Source: Candidatus Saccharimonadales bacterium | GTDB lineage: Bacteria > Patescibacteriota > Saccharimonadia > Saccharimonadales > 2-12-FULL-41-12 | Reading direction: 5' to 3' | Assembly (NCBI GenBank): GCA_025451045.1 | Contig: JANWLD010000001.1 | Location: forward strand, 273,965 to 337,964 | DNA length: 64,000 bases | Notes under the pieces: generated by a model | The model's input: the letters and a program-made list of their open reading frames with translations, nothing else | What the model was told of the DNA's origin: nothing | Database searches by the model: none | In this document: positions 2,380-63,780 of the stretch, in pieces | Layout of the letters: every line of letters starts with the position of its first letter | How positions within the stretch are numbered: the first letter of the stretch is position 1 | Position numbers and translations under genes: made by a program

Positions 2380-3564
2380 ATGTTTAATAAAAAAACAGTC
2401 GAAGATATTGATGTAGAAAACAAACGTATTGTCCTGCGGCTTGATTGGAATGTACCGGGCGACGCGCACGGCGAAGTTACCGATGACTTCCGTATTAAGG
2501 CAAGTTTGCCGACGATAGACTATCTGCTAAAGCACGGTTGCAGTCTGATTATCCTCAGTCACCGCGGCCGTCCCGATGGCCCGAGCCGGGAGTTCAGCAT
2601 GGAACCGGTGGCAAGAAAGGCCAGCCAGATAATCGGCAGAGAAGTGAAATTCGCCGATGATTTGACAGGCGAATCGGCCCAGACCGCAGTACAGCAGCTA
2701 AAACCTCAAGACATATTAGTGCTTCAAAATACCCGGTTTTATCCTGAAGAAAAATCAGGCGATGAAGGCTTTGCCCGCCGGCTGGCGAGTTACGGCGACA
2801 TTTTTGTGATGGATGCTTTCGCAGTTGCCCATCGTACGGATAGCTCAGTTATCGGTATCAACAAATTTTTGCCTTCAGTCGCGGGATTCTTGATAGAAAA
2901 AGAGATAACCGAACTCTCAAAAGCTATCGAAAATCCCAAAAAACCGGTGCTGGCTATCACCGGCGGAGCTAAGCTGGAAACTAAACTGCCACTTCTTAAA
3001 AACTTTATGAATTTTGCCGACCATATTGTCGTTGCCGGAGTAATGGCTAACATCCTGCTCCATGCGCTGGGCTATCGAACTGGAAAAAGTATCTTTGATA
3101 AAGCCGAACTTGCTACGGCTAAAGACGTACTGGCCCAAGCCGAAGCAAATGGCGTAAAGTTTATCTTGCCGACGGCTGACGTCGCGGTAGCCAAAAGCCG
3201 TGATGAAACAGAGCGACAAGAGATAAAGACCGAAGAAGTCGCGGAGGATGATTTTATCTTGGATTTTGGAGAAAAAAGTACCGGCAAGGTCAAAAAATTA
3301 ATCCTTGATGCCAATACTATTATTTGGAACGGCCCCCTCGGGCTTTATGAAAATCCGGTTTTTGCTAAGGCCTCAAAGGAGATAGCCCAAGCTATTGCCG
3401 CCAGCTCTGCCGTAAGCGTAGTTGGCGGCGGTGATACCGCTGACGTGGTCAATTCGCTCGGTCTGAGCGATAAGTTTACCCACGTTTCAACCGGCGGCGG
3501 AGCGTCTTTAGATTTCATGAGCGGCAAAAAACTACCCGCTATCGAAGCTTTGTCAGACAAATAG
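2380..3564 (+). CDS. pgk: phosphoglycerate kinase
   Basis: LRLDWNVP, the SHRGRP motif, and a glycine-rich C-terminal ATP lobe (GGGDT...STGGGASL) are present. The gene sits tightly after pyk. Confidence 0.92.
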   Translation: MFNKKTVEDIDVENKRIVLRLDWNVPGDAHGEVTDDFRIKASLPTIDYLLKHGCSLIILSHRGRPDGPSREFSMEPVARKASQIIGREVKFADDLTGESAQTAVQQLKPQDILVLQNTRFYPEEKSGDEGFARRLASYGDIFVMDAFAVAHRTDSSVIGINKFLPSVAGFLIEKEITELSKAIENPKKPVLAITGGAKLETKLPLLKNFMNFADHIVVAGVMANILLHALGYRTGKSIFDKAELATAKDVLAQAEANGVKFILPTADVAVAKSRDETERQEIKTEEVAEDDFILDFGEKSTGKVKKLILDANTIIWNGPLGLYENPVFAKASKEIAQAIAASSAVSVVGGGDTADVVNSLGLSDKFTHVSTGGGASLDFMSGKKLPAIEALSDK

Positions 3565-3594
3565 CTGTTACAATAATAAATAAGCATAAACGTC

Positions 3595-4395
3595 ATGAAA
3601 AAACCGAAGAAGATTTTGATTATCGGGAACTGGAAAATGAACCTGAATGTTTCGCAGGCCAGCCTGTTGGTTTCTCGCCTGGATAAACATATCAAAACCC
3701 GCAAGGGGATTGAAGTCGTGCTTGCTCCCAGTATGCTGGACTTACAACCGGTAAGCATGCAGGTAGACCGCCGCAAATTCCGCTTAGCGGCTCAAAATGC
3801 CTATCACCACGACGAAGGGGCTTTTACCGGCGAAGTTTCGTTCACCATGCTTCGTGAACTTGCGCATTATGTTATAATCGGCCATTCCGAACGCAGAATA
3901 TATTTTAAAGAAGACTTGGACGAAATCCGCGACAAAGTTTCAGCTTGCATGCGCAACGGCATCACGCCGATCCTATGCATAGGCGAAACCAAGACCGAAC
4001 GCCGGGCTGGAGAAACCCGGCAGGTGTTGCATGACCAGTTAATGACTGCCTTGAGCAATCTGACAGCCGAGGAAGTATCAGAAATGGTGATTGCCTATGA
4101 ACCAGTCTGGGCGATAAGTACATTCGAGGGCGATATCGCCAAACCTGACGAAATCGGTAAAGACTTAACTTTCATCAGAGATCAGGTTAAAGAACTCTAC
4201 GGCGTACAAACCGAGGAAAAGGTCAGAATAATTTATGGCGGTAGCGTCGATGACCATTCAGCCCGGGCGTATCTTGAAATACCCGGTTGCGAAGGCGTAT
4301 TGGTCGGTGGAGCCAGCATAAATTATCATAAGTTCGCCGGTATCGCCGAAGCGGCTTATAGGGTGGTAAAAGAAAATGCCGAAGAAAAAGAATAA
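3595..4395 (+). CDS. tpiA: triosephosphate isomerase
   Basis: IIGNWKMN, IIGHSERR, and the AYEPVWAI and GGSV motifs are all present. Confidence 0.92.
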   Translation: MKKPKKILIIGNWKMNLNVSQASLLVSRLDKHIKTRKGIEVVLAPSMLDLQPVSMQVDRRKFRLAAQNAYHHDEGAFTGEVSFTMLRELAHYVIIGHSERRIYFKEDLDEIRDKVSACMRNGITPILCIGETKTERRAGETRQVLHDQLMTALSNLTAEEVSEMVIAYEPVWAISTFEGDIAKPDEIGKDLTFIRDQVKELYGVQTEEKVRIIYGGSVDDHSARAYLEIPGCEGVLVGGASINYHKFAGIAEAAYRVVKENAEEKE

Positions 4396-17700: not shown

Positions 17701-18074
17701 TGGTGGAGCTGGTGGGTAATTCTCCCACGTCCATCAGTTTACGTCGTTGGTCGTCTACAAGCTTAGGCTATTTAGTTACGTCCTGAGATAAAAATAACCA
17801 AAAAATCAGGCCGGTTGACCCAAAGTCTTAGCGCATCTTACGGGTCGGTAAGTTGCGAGCGTTCAGAAAATATGACGCCAACTGAAAATATCTGAAGTCA
17901 ATTCAGTGGCGAACTTCGTTCTTAGGCGAAGTTGAATGCTAGCTTAGGCGCGAACGCATCAGCTAAGCGGTTTAGAAATGTTTTTGCATTTACTAAAAGT
18001 TTCCCTATGACGCTGAGAAGCGGCTTGCGGAATCCAACTTGTAAAGGTCCGATGTCGAGCTAAAATACAGCCCC
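17701..18074 (-). ncRNA. ssrA: tmRNA (transfer-messenger RNA)
   Basis: In the minus sense the 5' end reads GGGGCTGTATTTTAGCTCGACATCGG, which carries the canonical GGGGCUG acceptor strand and UCGAC element. The 3' end reads GGACGTGGGAGAATTACCCACCAGCTCCACCA, with a T-arm-like hairpin and CAGCUCC-A-CCA pairing the 5' end. Its 374-nt length fits. An internal tag-like reading frame ends ...AFAPKLAFNFA-TAA. Confidence 0.75.
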
Positions 18075-31219: not shown

Positions 31220-33103
31220 ATGACAGCGCAGGAGATACGAAAAGCTTATATTGATTTTTTTGTGAAGCAAAAACATGTCCCCATTCCGCGAGCTCAATTA
31301 GTGCCGCAGGATGACCCGACAACGCTTTTCACCGGTTCCGGTATGCAGCCGCTTATTCCATACCTGCTCGGCGAAGAACATCCGGAGGGAAAGCGCTTGG
31401 TAAATAGTCAAACCTGCTTGCGCGCCCAGGATATAGAAGAAGTTGGCGACAACAGCCACACTACGTTTTTTGAAATGCTCGGCAACTGGAGCTTGGGCGA
31501 TTATTTTAAAGAAGAGCAAATAAAATGGTTTTTTGAATTTTTAACGGACGAGGTCGGCTTGGATCCGAACAAACTCTACGTCAGCTGTTTTATCGGCAGT
31601 AAAGAACACGGTATACCCAAAGACGAGGAAACGGCCAAAATCTGGCAAGACTTATTCAAATCCAAAGGTATTGAAACCAAAATCGTCGACATCGGCAGCC
31701 AGAAAGACGGTGATAAAAAGGGCATGGACGGCGGCAGGATATTTTACTATGATGACGGCGAGAATTGGTGGAGCCGGGCCGGCGGCCTGGATACTACGCC
31801 TATCGGCGACCCTTGCGGCCCGGACAGCGAGGTGTTTTACGATTTTGGCGAAGACAAGCACAACGAAAGCTACGGCAAGCCGCACCCGGCCAGTGACTCC
31901 GGCCGGTTTATGGAAATCGGCAACCAAGTCTTTATGCAATATCTGCGCACCAAAGACGGTTTTGAGCCGCTGAAGAAGAAAAACGTCGATTTCGGAGGGG
32001 GGCTGGAACGGATAGCCGCTGCCGCCATAAACAGTCCGGATGTTTTTAAAATCAGCCTGCTTTGGCCGATTATTGAAAAATTAGAAGAGTTATCAGCCAA
32101 GAAATACGGGCAACATACGGCTAGTATGCGAGTAATAGCCGATCATTTGCGCGGCGTGGTTTTTCTTGCTGTCGACGGTGTTGCGCCGAGCAACAAAGAG
32201 CAAGGCTATGTTGCCAGACGGCTGATTCGCCGGGCTATCCGCTACGCTTTTGAGCTGGGTATTGAGCAGGGAATCTGTGAGCAGATTACCCCGGTAATTG
32301 TGGGTTTGTACAAAAAAGACTTCCCGGAAGTCGCTAAAGTTGAAAAACAGGTGATAGAAACCTTGGTTCGCGAAGAAAGAATCTTCCGCCAAACTCTTAG
32401 AAGTGGCTTACGACAACTTAATAAGACAATAGATGCTTTTGGCTCCCTGACAGGAAAAGATATATTTAGACTGTACGATACTTACGGATTTCCTGTCGAA
32501 CTCATTAAAGAGGAAGCTTATAAACGCAATATTGATATATCCGAAAACGCAGACAAAGAGTTTGAAAAGCTGATGAAACAGCAGCGTGAACGAAGCCAGA
32601 CTGCGACAAAGGGCGTGTTCAAAGGCGGTTTGGTTGACCATTCGGACGAAACTAAAAAACTCCATACCGCCACGCACCTGATGTACGAAGCGCTTCGCCA
32701 AGTGCTCGGCGACCATGTTGTCCAGCGCGGCAGTAATGTCAGCGCCCAACGCACACGATTTGACTTTTCCCACCCTGAAAAAGTAACCCGTGACAAGCTT
32801 GATGAAGTCGAAAAAATCGTCAATGAACAGATAAAAAAAGACTTAAAAGTGGAGTGGAAAGAATATCCGACTAAAGAAGCTTTCAAACTGGGAGCCAAAG
32901 GAGCTTTCGGCGACAAATACGGAGATAAAGTAAAGGTATACATTATGTCTGCTCCAAGCGAAAAGCCGTTCAGCATCGAAATCTGCGGCGGCCCGCATGT
33001 CGAACACACCGGCGTGTTAGCCGAAGGCGGGAAAAAATTCAAAATCGCCAAAGAGGAAGCATCATCCGCTGGTGTGCGAAGAATTAAGGCAATCTTAAAA
33101 TAA
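31220..33103 (+). CDS. alaS: alanyl-tRNA synthetase, short form (catalytic, tRNA-binding and editing domains; no C-terminal C-Ala domain)
   Basis: The N-terminal class-II core reads FFEMLGNWSLGDYFKEE. The editing-domain HxxxH region reads HTATHLMYEALRQVLG, and GGPHV closes the protein. It is 627 aa, against about 870 aa for canonical bacterial AlaRS. Confidence 0.85.
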   Translation: MTAQEIRKAYIDFFVKQKHVPIPRAQLVPQDDPTTLFTGSGMQPLIPYLLGEEHPEGKRLVNSQTCLRAQDIEEVGDNSHTTFFEMLGNWSLGDYFKEEQIKWFFEFLTDEVGLDPNKLYVSCFIGSKEHGIPKDEETAKIWQDLFKSKGIETKIVDIGSQKDGDKKGMDGGRIFYYDDGENWWSRAGGLDTTPIGDPCGPDSEVFYDFGEDKHNESYGKPHPASDSGRFMEIGNQVFMQYLRTKDGFEPLKKKNVDFGGGLERIAAAAINSPDVFKISLLWPIIEKLEELSAKKYGQHTASMRVIADHLRGVVFLAVDGVAPSNKEQGYVARRLIRRAIRYAFELGIEQGICEQITPVIVGLYKKDFPEVAKVEKQVIETLVREERIFRQTLRSGLRQLNKTIDAFGSLTGKDIFRLYDTYGFPVELIKEEAYKRNIDISENADKEFEKLMKQQRERSQTATKGVFKGGLVDHSDETKKLHTATHLMYEALRQVLGDHVVQRGSNVSAQRTRFDFSHPEKVTRDKLDEVEKIVNEQIKKDLKVEWKEYPTKEAFKLGAKGAFGDKYGDKVKVYIMSAPSEKPFSIEICGGPHVEHTGVLAEGGKKFKIAKEEASSAGVRRIKAILK

Positions 33104-33112
33104 AACTGGGAA

Positions 33113-33194
33113 GAGCAGCCGGAGCGTCGGCATTCACTGCCGCGCGCCGCGCGATGAGAAACCCTAGAATAGGGTGTCTCATAAGGCGAAGCCG
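33113..33194 (+). repeat. conserved structured element, copy 1. It is homologous to 33661..33736.
   Basis: Its ends GAGCAGCCGGAGCGTCGG and CTCATAAGGCGAAGCCG are shared with copy 2. The internal nested hairpin is ATGAGA-AA-CCCTA-GAA-TAGGG-TG-TCTCAT. Confidence 0.6.
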
Positions 33195-33252
33195 AAAAGA
33201 AGAAGCTTCATCCGCCGGAGTCAGAAGAGTCAAAGGCGTCTTAGTTTAGATA

Positions 33253-33573
33253 TTAATTTTCTGCGGAAAAATCGTTCGCTGTTTCGCCTATTTCTAAAGT
33301 CATACCTGAGGCTTCAATAGCACTTTTTACTGCTGTGAATACTTTTTTGGACCGATCATGCCTGAATTTGCCGAAATGATTGTAGGCGACAGTTATAACG
33401 GTCATTCGCCTGTTTCCGTTTTCACCGGCATGGATAACACTGTTTGCCTCGCCAAGACCTTTTGCTTCGCTCAAAACGGTTTCTTCCAAGCCAGGGACAT
33501 ATACCAGGGTTGTTTGGCCGGCGCTTTCATAGGCGCCAGCTAATATCTCTTTTATCTCAGGTTCTTTTGACAT
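33253..33573 (-). CDS. hypothetical protein (106 aa) flanked by the two structured elements
   Basis: This is an ORF with a weak ribosome-binding site. I found no recognisable motif. Confidence 0.4.
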   Translation of the reverse strand: MSKEPEIKEILAGAYESAGQTTLVYVPGLEETVLSEAKGLGEANSVIHAGENGNRRMTVITVAYNHFGKFRHDRSKKVFTAVKSAIEASGMTLEIGETANDFSAEN

Positions 33574-33660
33574 ACTCGAAATTCTTAAATGGGTTAGTTA
33601 TAATAATATATTTTGGTAAAAACATCAAGGCCTAAACTTTTTGATTTAAGGTATAGGGGT

Positions 33661-33736
33661 GAGCAGACCGAGCGTCGGATTTATTCCGCGCCCGGATCGA
33701 TGAGAGGGGATGTTCCCCTCTCATAAGGCGGAATCG
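33661..33736 (+). repeat. conserved structured element, copy 2
   Basis: It reads GAGCAGACCGAGCGTCGG ... CGATGAGAGGGG-ATGTT-CCCCTCTCATAAGGCGGAATCG. Relative to copy 1 the inner stem sequence is completely different but still perfectly paired. Confidence 0.6.
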
Positions 33737-33765
33737 TAATTGATTATGCTAAAATGTAGCCAGTT

Positions 33766-34392
33766 ATGTTTACTTCACGCTTTGTAAACAAAGTTTCTCT
33801 TATAGTGATTGCATTTATTTTGGTCGCATTGGCTTTTGCGGGTTTTGCTGTCGTTAAGGCTGATACCTCTCCCGCCAATACTCCGCCGGGAAGTACCCTT
33901 CAGCAACGGATTACCCAGCGTAAAAATGAACGCCAGTCAAGGCTTAACATCGATGATAAACAACGTCTTCAGAGTCAATGCACGCTTGCCCAAAGCAAGC
34001 TCAGGACCTTGGGGGATACTTACAGCTCTTCCTCTGACAAAAGAGATAAGGTTTATCGCAATATTGACGCTACATTGTGGATTATCATCGGCAAACTCAA
34101 ACTGGCGGACAAAGACACTTATAGTTTGGAACAACAAAGGACAAGTTACATTAAAAGAGTGCAGGCTTTTGAGAACCAATCGGACCAATTCCAACAGGCT
34201 GTAAAAGATATCGTGGCTATGAACTGCAAGGCCGACCCGACTGGTTTTAAGGCCTTACTACAAACTGCCAGACTATATAACGCCCAGATAAGAAGCTCGT
34301 TTATTGGTATTAAATCTTATCTGATTGATACTATCCAGCCGACAATCAGTAAACAATCGGACAGCTTGAAACTTAAAACGGAGGCTCAGTAG
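33766..34392 (+). CDS. hypothetical secreted/membrane-anchored coiled-coil protein
   Basis: There is an N-terminal hydrophobic helix. The remainder is Gln/Lys-rich. Confidence 0.5.
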   Translation: MFTSRFVNKVSLIVIAFILVALAFAGFAVVKADTSPANTPPGSTLQQRITQRKNERQSRLNIDDKQRLQSQCTLAQSKLRTLGDTYSSSSDKRDKVYRNIDATLWIIIGKLKLADKDTYSLEQQRTSYIKRVQAFENQSDQFQQAVKDIVAMNCKADPTGFKALLQTARLYNAQIRSSFIGIKSYLIDTIQPTISKQSDSLKLKTEAQ

Positions 34393-39563: not shown

Positions 39564-40637
39564 ATGGCAAAATATACAGCCTTCAACCGTGTTTTCGGCT
39601 TATCGCGCAAGCGGCGTGTCAGAGTCACTATTTTAGCTATAAATATACTAATCTTTGCTGTAGTCGGCGCTTTGGTCATCACTAACTCTTCGGCTTCTTC
39701 GGATCAACCTAAGTTTTCCAGCTTAGCGGCAGGCGCTGATAATGAATTGTCCAATCCCTTAGACGAGCTTTCTTCAGCTGACATTGCTGTTAACGTTGCC
39801 CGTGCAACTAGTTTGCCCGAAGCCACTGCTGTGACCAACACTGCCGATTCCGAAAATGCCAGTTTGGCGATTGCTTCCACGGACGATAACGTGGTCAGTA
39901 AGCCGCAGGTGATTTCTGAAGGATTGGCCTCGAATAAAGACATTATTCGTTACACAGTAGAAAAAGACGATGACGTGAACAGTGTAGCCGCTAAATTTGG
40001 TATTACCTCACAGACTATCAAGCTCTCGAATAGTCTCGACAGTGATTCGCTAACGCCCGGTATGGAGCTACTTATAAGCCCGGTCAATGGATTGGTTTAC
40101 AGGGTCCAACCCGGCGATACGCCGTCTTCTGTCGCCCATAAATTCCACGCTAGCATAGACCAGGTTATCGCTTTTAATGATGCTGAACTTACAGGTAAAC
40201 TTAAGCCGGGAGATTTGATTGTTATACCTGACGGCAGCCAGCCTGCTGGTCCAAGGTTTAATTATGACGTAGCTACAGCTGCCGCCAGGTCCCGTAGTGG
40301 TCCTGTCTTTTCTTTCGGCGGCGGAGTTGGCTATCCTGAAGGCTGGTGTACTTATTATGCGGCCGCCAGAAGCGGCGCGCCCGGCGGCTGGGGTAATGCT
40401 GCTACTTGGTCATATTATGCAGCCCTTGATGGCTGGACAGTAAGCGGTGTGCCTAAGCGCGGAGCAATCGCTCAAACCTCAGCAAATCATGTAGGTATAG
40501 TAGAAGATGTGCGCAAGGTAGACGGCCAATGGCAGATTAAATACTCCGATATGAACGGAATAGCCGGTTTCAATAGAGTTGGCTATAGTGGTTGGGAGCC
40601 GGCACACAGCACCTTCCAAAACTTTATTTACCACTAG
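39564..40637 (+). CDS. peptidoglycan hydrolase with two LysM domains and a C-terminal CHAP domain
   Basis: YTVEKDDDVNSVAAKFGIT and YRVQPGDTPSSVAHKF are the two LysM domains. The C-terminal CHAP domain reads GYPEGWCTYYAA...HVGIVE. Confidence 0.8.
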   Translation: MAKYTAFNRVFGLSRKRRVRVTILAINILIFAVVGALVITNSSASSDQPKFSSLAAGADNELSNPLDELSSADIAVNVARATSLPEATAVTNTADSENASLAIASTDDNVVSKPQVISEGLASNKDIIRYTVEKDDDVNSVAAKFGITSQTIKLSNSLDSDSLTPGMELLISPVNGLVYRVQPGDTPSSVAHKFHASIDQVIAFNDAELTGKLKPGDLIVIPDGSQPAGPRFNYDVATAAARSRSGPVFSFGGGVGYPEGWCTYYAAARSGAPGGWGNAATWSYYAALDGWTVSGVPKRGAIAQTSANHVGIVEDVRKVDGQWQIKYSDMNGIAGFNRVGYSGWEPAHSTFQNFIYH

Positions 40638-61046: not shown

Positions 61047-61132
61047 GGTGGGGATGAAAGGACTTGAACCTTCACGAGCCGAAGCTCACTAGCTCCTGAA
61101 GCTAGCGCGTCTACCAATTCCGCCACATCCCC
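61047..61132 (-). tRNA. tRNA-Leu (anticodon CAG)
   Basis: The reverse complement GGGGATGTGGCGGAATTGGTAGACGCGCTAGCTTCAGGAGCTAGTGAGCTTCGGCTCGTGAAGGTTCAAGTCCTTTCATCCCCACCA folds as a cloverleaf. It has a long variable arm, an anticodon loop TTCAGGA, and an encoded CCA. Confidence 0.85.
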
Positions 61133-61142
61133 GTATTTTTAA

Positions 61143-61230
61143 TTGGTGGGCGAGAGGACAGCGCTTCGGCTGTCGCGCCAAGCTAACCTGCCTGGAGGTT
61201 CAAATCTGTCTCCCCGCAATTACGAAACCC
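61143..61230. repeat. tRNA-Leu-derived structured element 'b'. It is homologous to element a.
   Basis: It starts TGGTGGGCGAGAGG, the inverse of the tRNA-Leu(GAG) 3' end. The core GGACAGCGCTTCGGCT...AGCTAACCT...GGTTCAAAT is shared with element a. The stem GCTTCG/AAGC here covaries with GCTCCG/CGGAGC in a. Confidence 0.5.
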
Positions 61231-61252
61231 CTCCAAAGAGAGATTTAGCAAT

Positions 61253-61339
61253 TGGTGGGCGAGAGAGGACTTGAACCTCCACAGGATTGCTCCCATTGGC
61301 CCCTCAAGCCAACGCGTCTACCAATTCCGCCACTCGCCC
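61253..61339 (-). tRNA. tRNA-Leu (anticodon GAG)
   Basis: The reverse complement GGGCGAGTGGCGGAATTGGTAGACGCGTTGGCTTGAGGGGCCAATGGGAGCAATCCTGTGGAGGTTCAAGTCCTCTCTCGCCCACCA folds as a cloverleaf with a long variable arm and an encoded CCA. Confidence 0.85.
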
Positions 61340-61399
61340 GTAAGCACTTATTGTACTATATAACCCAATCTGTTAAATATGCTATACTCGATTATCTAT

Positions 61400-61476
61400 G
61401 GGTGATTAGCTCAGTTGGCTAGAGCATCTCGTTTACACCGAGGGGGTCGGGGGTTCGAGTCCCTCATCACCCACCA
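61400..61476 (+). tRNA. tRNA-Val (anticodon TAC)
   Basis: GGGTGATTAGCTCAGTTGGCTAGAGCATCTCGTTTACACCGAGGGGGTCGGGGGTTCGAGTCCCTCATCACCCACCA folds as a cloverleaf with an encoded CCA. Confidence 0.85.
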
Positions 61477-63704: not shown

Positions 63705-63780
63705 GGCTCTTTAGCTCAGTTGGTAGAGCAGAGGCTTGAAGAGCCTTGTGTCCCCAGTTCGAGTCTGGGAGGAGCCACCA
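63705..63780 (+). tRNA. tRNA-Phe (anticodon GAA)
   Basis: GGCTCTTTAGCTCAGTTGGTAGAGCAGAGGCTTGAAGAGCCTTGTGTCCCCAGTTCGAGTCTGGGAGGAGCCACCA folds as a cloverleaf. It has an anticodon loop TTGAAGA and an encoded CCA. Confidence 0.85.

Follow-up and report, generated by a model that had tools for sequence, protein, structure and literature searches.

Introduction

MITEs (miniature inverted-repeat transposable elements) and other small bacterial repeats (Correia/NEMIS, RUP, BOX, ERIC, REP/REPIN, and the Rickettsia palindromic elements) are short, non-coding, non-autonomous, and structured; they are found in both orientations at the ends of genes or in the gaps between them, are tolerated in operons, and form subfamilies across genomes. 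The same is true of a structured element that we describe here, two copies of which lie on the forward strand at 33108–33194 (copy 1) and 33656–33736 (copy 2) of a 64,000-nt stretch of Candidatus Saccharimonadales bacterium (contig JANWLD010000001.1 of assembly GCA_025451045.1; this whole stretch is hereafter called the window). The two copies are probably independent insertions of a small (~85–100 nt), low-copy, non-autonomous mobile element with a precise 3′ end and long variable target duplications. Unlike the small repeats named above, the element has no terminal inverted repeats, its duplications are variable (18–58 nt) rather than fixed (2–10 nt), it occurs once or twice per contig rather than tens to hundreds of times, and one of its ends is precise while the other is ragged. 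Where a MITE has a fixed short duplication abutting both ends, the duplication abuts the element at its 3′ end only, and a unique spacer of 10–38 nt lies at its 5′ end.

Long target repeats of variable length are produced by the IS1634 group of the IS4 family and by IS1549, in which these direct repeats measure 17 to several hundred bp (PMC2266710). The element shares this property (18, 33, 36, 48, and ~32 nt at five loci). The IS1634-type transposons are nevertheless autonomous DDE transposons of 1.5–2 kb with terminal inverted repeats and with duplications that abut both ends, whereas no transposase is encoded in the window, and the element lacks inverted repeats and bears at one end a spacer that differs from insertion to insertion. 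They are the only bacterial precedent for the long duplications and are otherwise unlike the element.

The short and long interspersed nuclear elements (SINEs and LINEs) of eukaryotes move by target-primed retroposition. Like the element, they show a precise 3′ junction, variable duplications, and extra 5′ nucleotides, and they include small structured non-coding units that depend on a trans-acting enzyme, as the element presumably does. The element differs from them in having neither an A-rich tail nor a known partner reverse transcriptase. We know of no SINE/LINE-type target-primed system that has been described in bacteria.

Islands and phages whose integration sites are the 3′ ends of genes for tRNA, tmRNA, or proteins also restore the interrupted gene and leave its displaced end as a direct repeat, in some cases an imperfect one, but they are kilobase-sized, carry their own integrase, and use one specific target, whereas the element is ~100 nt long, has no open reading frame (ORF), and has used no fewer than five unrelated targets, at 5′ as well as 3′ ends of genes. 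With attC sites and the IS200/IS605 group the element shares conserved stems with bulged bases, a variable terminal structure, and hairpins that covariation maintains and that fold on either strand, those of the element being conserved near both of its ends and folding on both strands. It differs from them in lacking R boxes, a conserved flanking tetranucleotide, and cargo cassettes and in having target duplications, and it comprises two to three adjacent hairpins while attC is a single bulged hairpin. A riboswitch or other cis-regulatory leader needs a constant sense position in the 5′ untranslated region (UTR) of related genes, unlike the element with its mixed orientation and unrelated neighbors, and an intrinsic terminator is a GC-rich hairpin with a U tract, which the hairpins of the element lack. 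Judging from these comparisons, the element is probably a small non-autonomous structured insertion element. It lacks defining features of Rfam families, MITEs, IS200/IS605 or REP elements, attC sites, integrase-borne islands, riboswitch-type leaders, and intrinsic terminators, and it has the footprint of target-primed retroposons. Its footprint most closely resembles that of target-primed retroposition, and its hairpin anatomy resembles that of single-stranded-DNA elements.

Structure and Conservation of the Element

Copy 1 folds into a 5′ tail GGGAAGAGCA (33108–33117), a bulged hairpin P1 (33118–33152), a hairpin P2 (33154–33182), whose AUGAGA/UCUCAU base is conserved and whose tip varies, and an AAGG linker followed by a short hairpin P3 (GGC-GAA-GCC; 33185–33193). 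Copy 2, which belongs to a different subfamily, has the tail GGGGUGAGCA, P1 at 33666–33698, P2 at 33700–33724, and a degenerate P3. Common to both are the blocks GAGCAGnCnGAGCGTCGG, CCGCGC..CGATGAGA, and TCTCATAAGGCG, and the two main hairpins of each copy give z-scores of −3.1 to −4.9 against dinucleotide shuffles on either strand. The initial annotation of this DNA had reported two homologous structured copies, placed at 33113–33194 and 33661–33736, with compensatory stems (CGGCA/UGCCG against CGGA/UCCG, and CCCUA/UAGGG against GGGG/CCCC); both the copies and the compensation are real, and the covariation extends to the whole family.

Across the family, the 5′ tail is short (GGGAWGAGCAG), P1 is a long bulged hairpin of nearly invariant sequence, P2 keeps its AUGAGA/UCUCAU base while its tip covaries freely, and the AAGG linker leads to the short variable hairpin P3, which ends in ...GCCG. 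After P2 and P3 come AAGG... or flank sequence rather than U runs. One subfamily has an additional small hairpin, P0, built with the nucleotides immediately upstream. The first 5–6 nt of the tail occur in several classes, each going with one sequence class of the P2 tip (alignment columns 1–6 and 53–72), namely GGGAWG with AAACC/GGGUG, GGGGUG with GGGG/CCCC, AAAAAG with GGAAAAACC, and GAGGAG with GGAGG/CCUCC. The GAUGAG of the tail repeats the P2 5′ arm, and an alternative pairing with CUCAU is possible; the association between tail and tip could reflect either common ancestry inside subfamilies or such an alternative pairing.

A covariance model of the element was built from 13 copies and scored on the window, on 8-kb loci of other genomes (designated below by L numbers), and on metagenome matches. 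True copies scored 69–105 bits and noise at most 15 bits; copies 1 and 2 scored 87.5 and 91.2 bits, respectively, against at most 11.4 bits for the rest of the 64-kb window. Among 24 distinct aligned copies, 98.6% of the cells of the 21 pairs hold standard pairs, and double changes occur in 9 of these pairs (35 cells); none of 500 shuffles came as high on either count, and pairing fell to 30–54% in the controls with slid partners. This alignment was fitted to the covariance model and is biased toward the structure; an independent MAFFT/RNAalifold run returned the same helices, with 7 doubly compensated pairs. The sequence and structure of the element are under strong purifying selection.

Homologues were sought in the genome collection and in metagenomes with a sequence pattern spanning both halves of the element. 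In the genome collection 11 of 13 matches were clear homologues, all in Saccharibacteria/Saccharimonadales assemblies, and in the metagenomes 14 of 19 were true copies by the covariance model, the remainder being chance matches to which the model gave no match. Three divergent copies (L092, L094, and L098) lay beyond the reach of the pattern and were found through syntenic loci, indicating that the family is larger than the exact-pattern matches suggest. In total at least 27 distinct copies are known, all from Saccharibacteria genomes or metagenomes, and the element is restricted to this group as far as sampled. Each 8-kb locus holds one copy, apart from L073/L076 with two in the same orientation 2.4 kb apart; the window likewise holds two. 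The initial annotation had named a lack of further homologues as grounds for taking the pair as a two-copy coincidence; homologues exist in many genomes, and this does not apply.

Copies 1 and 2 are only 64% identical to each other, and each is 84% identical to copies of other genomes; the closest relative of copy 2 is that of L067, in another genome (84%). Copies of the same genome are 64 and 74% alike, while their best matches in other genomes reach 84–96%. The copies of L059, L068, and L077 are 93–96% identical, yet they lie in different genes of different genomes.

The element also matches no Rfam family, and the initial annotation likewise had found no class to fit it. No Rfam 15 match overlapped either copy when the whole window was scanned at gathering thresholds or when 32900–33900 was scanned at E ≤ 10. 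By-eye comparison with hammerhead, HDV-like, twister, pistol, and hatchet ribozymes, and with signal recognition particle (SRP) RNA, group II domain 5, K-turn, and box C/D motifs gave no fit; the likeness to SRP RNA (GGAAG-AGCAGCC) is only apparent, as the partner strand is missing. Half-element patterns gave 57 matches in a viral collection, all by chance, BLAST of the L068 copy against phage and plasmid records gave no match, and the open-access papers searched hold no description of such an element in Saccharibacteria or other members of the candidate phyla radiation (CPR).

The lengths of the copies (78–87 nt) are not multiples of three and no ORF is kept consistently through them, so the element is non-coding, and a peptide-coding or designed open-frame reading was rejected on the inconsistency of the frames. 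In 22 copies the first 40 nt were set against the last 40 nt in reverse complement; judged against shuffles, these comparisons revealed no terminal inverted repeats (one nominal p ~0.04 only). Promoter and terminator scans placed no terminator-like site over either window copy and found nothing attributable to the elements.

Flanking Duplications and Sites of the Element

When the 200 nt upstream of every copy were aligned with the 200 nt downstream, significant direct repeats flanking the element were found at five independent loci: the alaS 3′ end in the window (48 nt, 75% identical), the ftsA start in L059 (18/18), the 3′ end of a peptidase gene in L068 and identically in L078 (32/33), the tpiA start in L081 and identically in L089 (34/36), and the msrA start in L069, with an orthologous site in L062 (32 nt, ~72%). 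The z-scores of these duplications are 8–21 except at msrA (2.5–4.6), where the repeat is backed by the encoded peptides (MSSQTAIFAAGCFWG and MKKTAVFAAGCFWG). The geometry is the same in all five events: flank, repeat U, an insertion-specific spacer of 10–38 nt, the element from 5′ to 3′, and repeat D, which begins 1–7 nt beyond the terminal ...GCCG in every case. The duplications thus vary in length (18–58 nt) and adjoin only the 3′ end of the element.

The spacer between U and the element is common to no other locus, except that the filled tpiA site of L094 has a related one, and a search for its source gave only chance 9-mers elsewhere. In the subfamily in which a spacer ending in ...YCTC meets an element beginning with GGGAAG..., the final 6–9 nt of the spacer pair with the 5′ tail (e.g., CUUCCC-CUC-GGGAAG), which indicates that the element reaches slightly further 5′ as a small hairpin; 5–13 nt of truly unique filler remain after this pairing is allowed for.

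In the window, alaS (31220–33103, + strand) ends with repeat U (33050–33103), which comprises its last 17 codons and stop, in frame, and encodes ...KEEASSAGVRRIKAILK. A 4-nt junction, AACT (33104–33107, read from the sequence), separates the stop from the 5′ tail of copy 1, which the initial annotation had placed right after alaS; comparable junctions are TAAAAACT after the stop in L092 and ATGGAATT after the stop in L098. Directly after copy 1, the last 16 codons of alaS (33050–33097) recur at 33196–33243 (48 nt, 75% identity, z = 10) within repeat D (33196–33249, + strand), a displaced former alaS 3′ end that encodes KEEASSAGVRRVKGVLV, has intact codons and its own stop, and is now non-coding. 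This displaced end had been overlooked in the initial annotation. The agreement of U with D (36/48) is within the spread of alleles among lineages (29–39/48), and D is nearest to the element-free relative L093 (39/48 codon-aligned), with which it shares the end KGVLV before the stop. The AlaRS relatives all end at one residue, and the U and D tails both lie inside the natural C-terminal variation. D abuts the stop of a small convergent ORF, as alaS does in element-free relatives. A diversity-generating retroelement was considered as the source of the alaS repeat and rejected, as the differences between U and D are not adenine-specific.

AlaRS of the window and its 120 closest relatives (P0002–P0121) are short proteins of 609–686 amino acids (aa) that end just past the tRNA_SAD editing-domain motif, always at the ...RRIKAxL residue; the differences in length among them lie elsewhere than at the C-terminus.

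The small convergent ORF lies between the two copies (33253–33573, − strand; 106 aa). A word-indexed search of 5.8 billion proteins found only the ORF itself, but it is homologous to small ORFs at the same position in element-free relatives (E = 1e-20 with 37% identity for L093, and 3e-07 for another). Because these ORFs occur where no element exists, the 106-aa ORF is native to the locus and is not the cargo of a cassette. It is fast-evolving: in the relatives (L090, 4891–5328; L091, 4942–5286; L093, 4941–5294; L097, 4388–4759) the identity is 27–40% where AlaRS is 82–88% identical. It has no Pfam family and is absent from L092 and L098.

Copy 2 ends 30 nt upstream of the ATG (33766) of a 208-aa gene, but it is also upstream of TGCTAAAAT (33747–33755, + strand), an extended −10-like box that is conserved in the upstream regions of the window, L090–L093, and L098. 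On conservation and consensus, this box is a putative promoter −10 element of the 208-aa gene. Its position indicates that copy 2 probably lies outside the 5′ UTR of that gene, into which it had originally been placed.

Gene order is conserved in the closest AlaRS relatives (79–88% identical), as mnmA - alaS - small convergent ORF - ~205-aa gene - ~145-aa gene - ftsA, and the locus occurs in three states. In L090, L091, L093, and L097 neither site holds an element, and the alaS stop abuts the stop of the small ORF; in L092 and L098 a single element lies 8 nt past the alaS stop, the small ORF is missing, and the promoter box comes next; and the window has two elements, the small ORF, and the displaced alaS end. 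The site of copy 2 is empty in L090, L091, and L093. These states are at odds with the gene phylogeny, as the AlaRS proteins of L092 and L098 share only 81.7% identity, and each is closer than that to some genomes whose site is empty.

An empty site is also known at tpiA, where L095 and L096 have no element and L089/L081 and L094 do; the intergenic sequence and the CGC second codon of L095/L096 match the D side of L089. In the window itself, the pgk-tpiA junction (2380–4395, genes 30 nt apart) is an empty counterpart of the site filled in L081/L089 and L094. In L094 the tpiA repeats U and D are ~68% identical, and their differences are almost wholly synonymous.

The way in which the duplicated end is used depends on the target. 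Where the element lies at the 3′ end of a gene, U serves as the end of the live gene, whose stop is at the element or just within it. In antisense insertions at 5′ ends (tpiA of L089 and L094, and msrA of L069), the displaced start in D opens a frame through the element that ends at a TGA overlapping the new ATG (ATGA), and a GAGG is supplied by the spacer (tpiA and msrA). At ftsA the frame opened by the U start stops 7 nt ahead of the real ATG. The ftsA-like gene of L059 (~877–960, as oriented) appears frameshifted a few codons in (MSEEKFILLCRT... against an expected ...YFVGLDIGTT in another frame), which is probably an assembly error, because the orthologue in L087 reads through.

Genomic Context of the Element

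Relative to the genes beside it, the element occurs in both orientations, sense in about half of the copies and antisense in the other half, and its neighbors are unrelated housekeeping genes: the copies lie at rplO/secY, between miaA and a small gene beginning M[IF]EQLF, in front of ftsA, and at pgk/tpiA, msrA, a metallopeptidase-like gene, and a tRNA-Gln gene. In the last case (L072) the 3′ end of the element is 4 nt upstream of the tRNA-Gln gene on the same strand (1560–1633 and 1638–1722, both on the − strand), and this copy would be part of the 5′ leader of the tRNA-Gln precursor. Between the two copies of L073/L076 are housekeeping genes such as xseA.

The 3′ end of the element is often only 1–3 nt ahead of a start codon, with AAGG or GGAG at a Shine-Dalgarno-like spacing. 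Upstream of the M[IF]EQLF gene in L061, L064, L077, and L084, P3 carries a short tandem duplication (of CGGAGC) that enlarges it (e.g., GGCGGAGCGTGATCGGAGCCGCG directly followed by ATG) and puts GGAG 5 nt ahead of the start codon. In L071 an extra 92-aa ORF (3744–4022, + strand) lies in the spc operon between rplO and the element preceding secY; in L066, 78 nt separate rplO from the element without such an ORF.

The only Rfam matches in the window are one tmRNA gene (17701–18074, − strand) and five tRNA genes in the regions 206–277, 61049–61473, and 63705–63777, three of them clustered at 61.0–61.5 kb. A LysM-LysM-CHAP cell-wall hydrolase (39564–40637, + strand) and a small membrane protein of a phage-holin family (PF04020; 56053–56421, + strand) are encoded, and no further phage genes were evident among the window ORFs scanned.

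Possible Origins of the Element

The sites of this family are filled in some genomes and empty in others, new junctions are seen in at least five genes together with long target duplications, and the element has a precise 3′ and a ragged 5′ boundary. We consider insertion of a mobile element to be the probable explanation of both window copies. An enzyme encoded elsewhere in the genome would recognize the conserved hairpins, join the 3′ end of the element precisely to an opened target, and leave the 5′ junction to be settled imprecisely; the target would be cut at positions 18–58 nt apart, and fill-in of this stagger would yield the duplication. As these genomes are compact, insertions would survive only at gene boundaries, where an interrupted gene regains its end from the duplication, and Shine-Dalgarno-like sequences at both ends of the element together with stop/start overlaps (ATGA) would keep the neighboring gene translated. 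The copies would persist for long, and homologous recombination in the conserved genes on either side could shift or delete them; this would account for the three states of the alaS locus and for U and D repeats that resemble alleles.

Several observations weigh against this explanation. About 12 of 17 independent loci have no detectable duplication, and no significant short exact target repeats were found at the remaining loci. At alaS, msrA, and L094, U and D differ mostly by synonymous changes. Such divergence agrees neither with a target duplication that has simply decayed nor with a recent insertion, and it calls for a second process. The same junctions are occupied in several genomes (upstream of secY, a winged helix-turn-helix-like gene, and ftsA; secY in L066, L071, and L080, the M[IF]EQLF gene in L061, L064, L077, L079, and L084, and ftsA in L059 and L087), which could instead reflect a selected function. 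Only one or two copies occur per contig, a very low number that non-autonomous elements do not usually show. No transposase, recombinase, HUH nuclease, or reverse transcriptase was found in the 64-kb window among its 30 less obvious ORFs and the seven nearest the element, and no mobility enzyme was evident beside the other copies, where the housekeeping genes were read rather than scanned against family models. Two tests of strand, by wobble counts and by folding energies, contradict each other. Finally, we know of no bacterial transposition mechanism in which a precise end goes together with a ragged one and with duplications of 18–58 nt.

The simplest source of the synonymous divergence between U and D is subsequent exchange with other alleles by homologous recombination, which is to be expected at alaS because its locus states run against the gene tree; alternatively, the element may have arrived together with a foreign gene end. 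Homology-facilitated illegitimate recombination is unlikely to be the sole origin of the new junctions, because on the donor side the junction never departs from the exact 3′ end of the element, and the junctions have little or no microhomology.

While insertion is favored, we would give no single mechanism more than a small chance. That the element moves by a mechanism undescribed in bacteria, in which the 3′ end of a structured RNA (by target-primed reverse transcription) or of a single-stranded DNA is joined to a variably staggered target, is a speculative possibility. The first form of insertion to be weighed, a SINE-like bacterial retroposon, is doubtful in our view. A + strand RNA, through its conserved 3′ hairpins, would attract a reverse transcriptase acting in trans and be copied by it, starting from the 3′ end of the RNA on a nicked target; a variably placed second nick would give the variable duplication, and the 5′ junction would gain nucleotides. 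This would explain the precise 3′ junction, the duplications of 18–58 nt, and the insertion-specific 5′ filler of 5–13 nt, and the wobble pairs lean toward the + strand (10 G.U against 5 A.C). In L072, moreover, the element ends 4 nt before a same-strand tRNA-Gln gene, where RNase P could set the 3′ end of the RNA. The minus strand, on the other hand, folds better in 18 of 24 copies, which speaks against a + strand RNA; there is neither an A-rich or simple 3′ tail nor a 5′-truncated copy, and the 64-kb window holds no reverse transcriptase gene. We know of no bacterial target-primed retroposons besides group II introns.

It is likewise no more than tentatively that we would take the element for a hairpin acting as single-stranded DNA, handled by a HUH nuclease/transposase or a structure-specific recombinase in the manner of REP/RAYT, IS200/IS605, or attC, with one end cut precisely beside a hairpin and the other settled by replication or recombination. 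The structure is nearly strand-symmetric with the minus strand folding slightly better, the stems are conserved in sequence with invariant bulged bases, the P2 tip is a variable terminal structure, and the precise end is 12–14 nt past the foot of P2. The copies also lie between genes in both orientations, as REP elements do. Systems of the HUH, REP, and attC types, however, are not known to make target duplications and usually require a fixed flanking tetra- or pentanucleotide, whereas target duplications occur here and the flanks share neither a tetranucleotide nor any other motif. In addition, the attC boxes R″ (RYYYAAC) and R′ (GTTRRRY) occur together in 0 of 24 copies, the window has no HUH or Y1 gene, and REP-type elements normally number tens to hundreds of copies.

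A further explanation dispenses with mobility: a functional structured RNA or intergenic punctuation (protein-binding, processing, or translation-coupling) would be kept by selection at gene junctions and spread passively between lineages by homologous recombination of the flanking genes. The filling of the same junctions in divergent genomes (secY, the M[IF]EQLF gene, and ftsA), the strong purifying selection on sequence and structure, the position of the 3′ end often 1–3 nt before a start codon, and an occupancy of alaS that runs against the gene phylogeny, as lateral exchange of alleles would give, are all consistent with it. We nevertheless regard it as unlikely. Both orientations occur relative to the flanking operon, the neighboring genes are functionally unrelated, close relatives have empty sites, and there is no terminator-like U tract. 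Moreover, almost identical copies are found in different genomes at genes that are not homologous, and recombination of flanks cannot bring about the new junctions that alaS, tpiA, msrA, ftsA, and the peptidase gene contain. The initial annotation had proposed a cis-regulatory or processing RNA motif; such a role toward alaS or the gene after it is unlikely as well because about half of the copies are antisense, the syntenic sites are empty in close relatives, and copy 2 is upstream of the −10 box. The element may also represent a small-RNA family, as had been suggested there.

The proposal that integron-like or Xer-like att sites bracket a gene cassette, to which the two direct copies around a small orphan-looking ORF, the paired copies of L073/L076, and the single copy without small ORF in L092 and L098 (as copy-copy recombination would leave) lend some color, is very improbable and at the window locus largely refuted, given that the ORF is native and syntenic where the element is absent, the paired copies are of different subfamilies, the genes between those of L073 are housekeeping genes (xseA), most copies are solitary, and neither attC boxes in the element nor a recombinase in the window was found.

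Implications

An element of ~100 nt can lie in essential genes (alaS, tpiA, and ftsA, and in front of secY) and leave them intact because the interrupted gene end is duplicated. In practice, the element marks recombination break-points and presence/absence polymorphisms for strain-resolved metagenomics of Saccharibacteria, and it leads annotation astray through pseudo gene ends, small ORFs that are spurious, and C-termini that are extended. The genomes of Saccharibacteria and other CPR bacteria are tiny and dense, and little is known of how these change or of their non-coding elements; here a strongly covarying, conserved non-coding element is found in Saccharibacteria that is absent from Rfam and, as far as searched, from the literature. 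If its insertion mechanism is new, a class would be added to bacterial mobile DNA, and the conserved hairpins would point to the enzyme responsible. Should that mechanism prove to be of the undescribed kind considered above, the element would represent either a bacterial analogue of SINE-like retroposition or transposition of a new class, and it would have evolved to sit harmlessly at the gene boundaries of very compact genomes.

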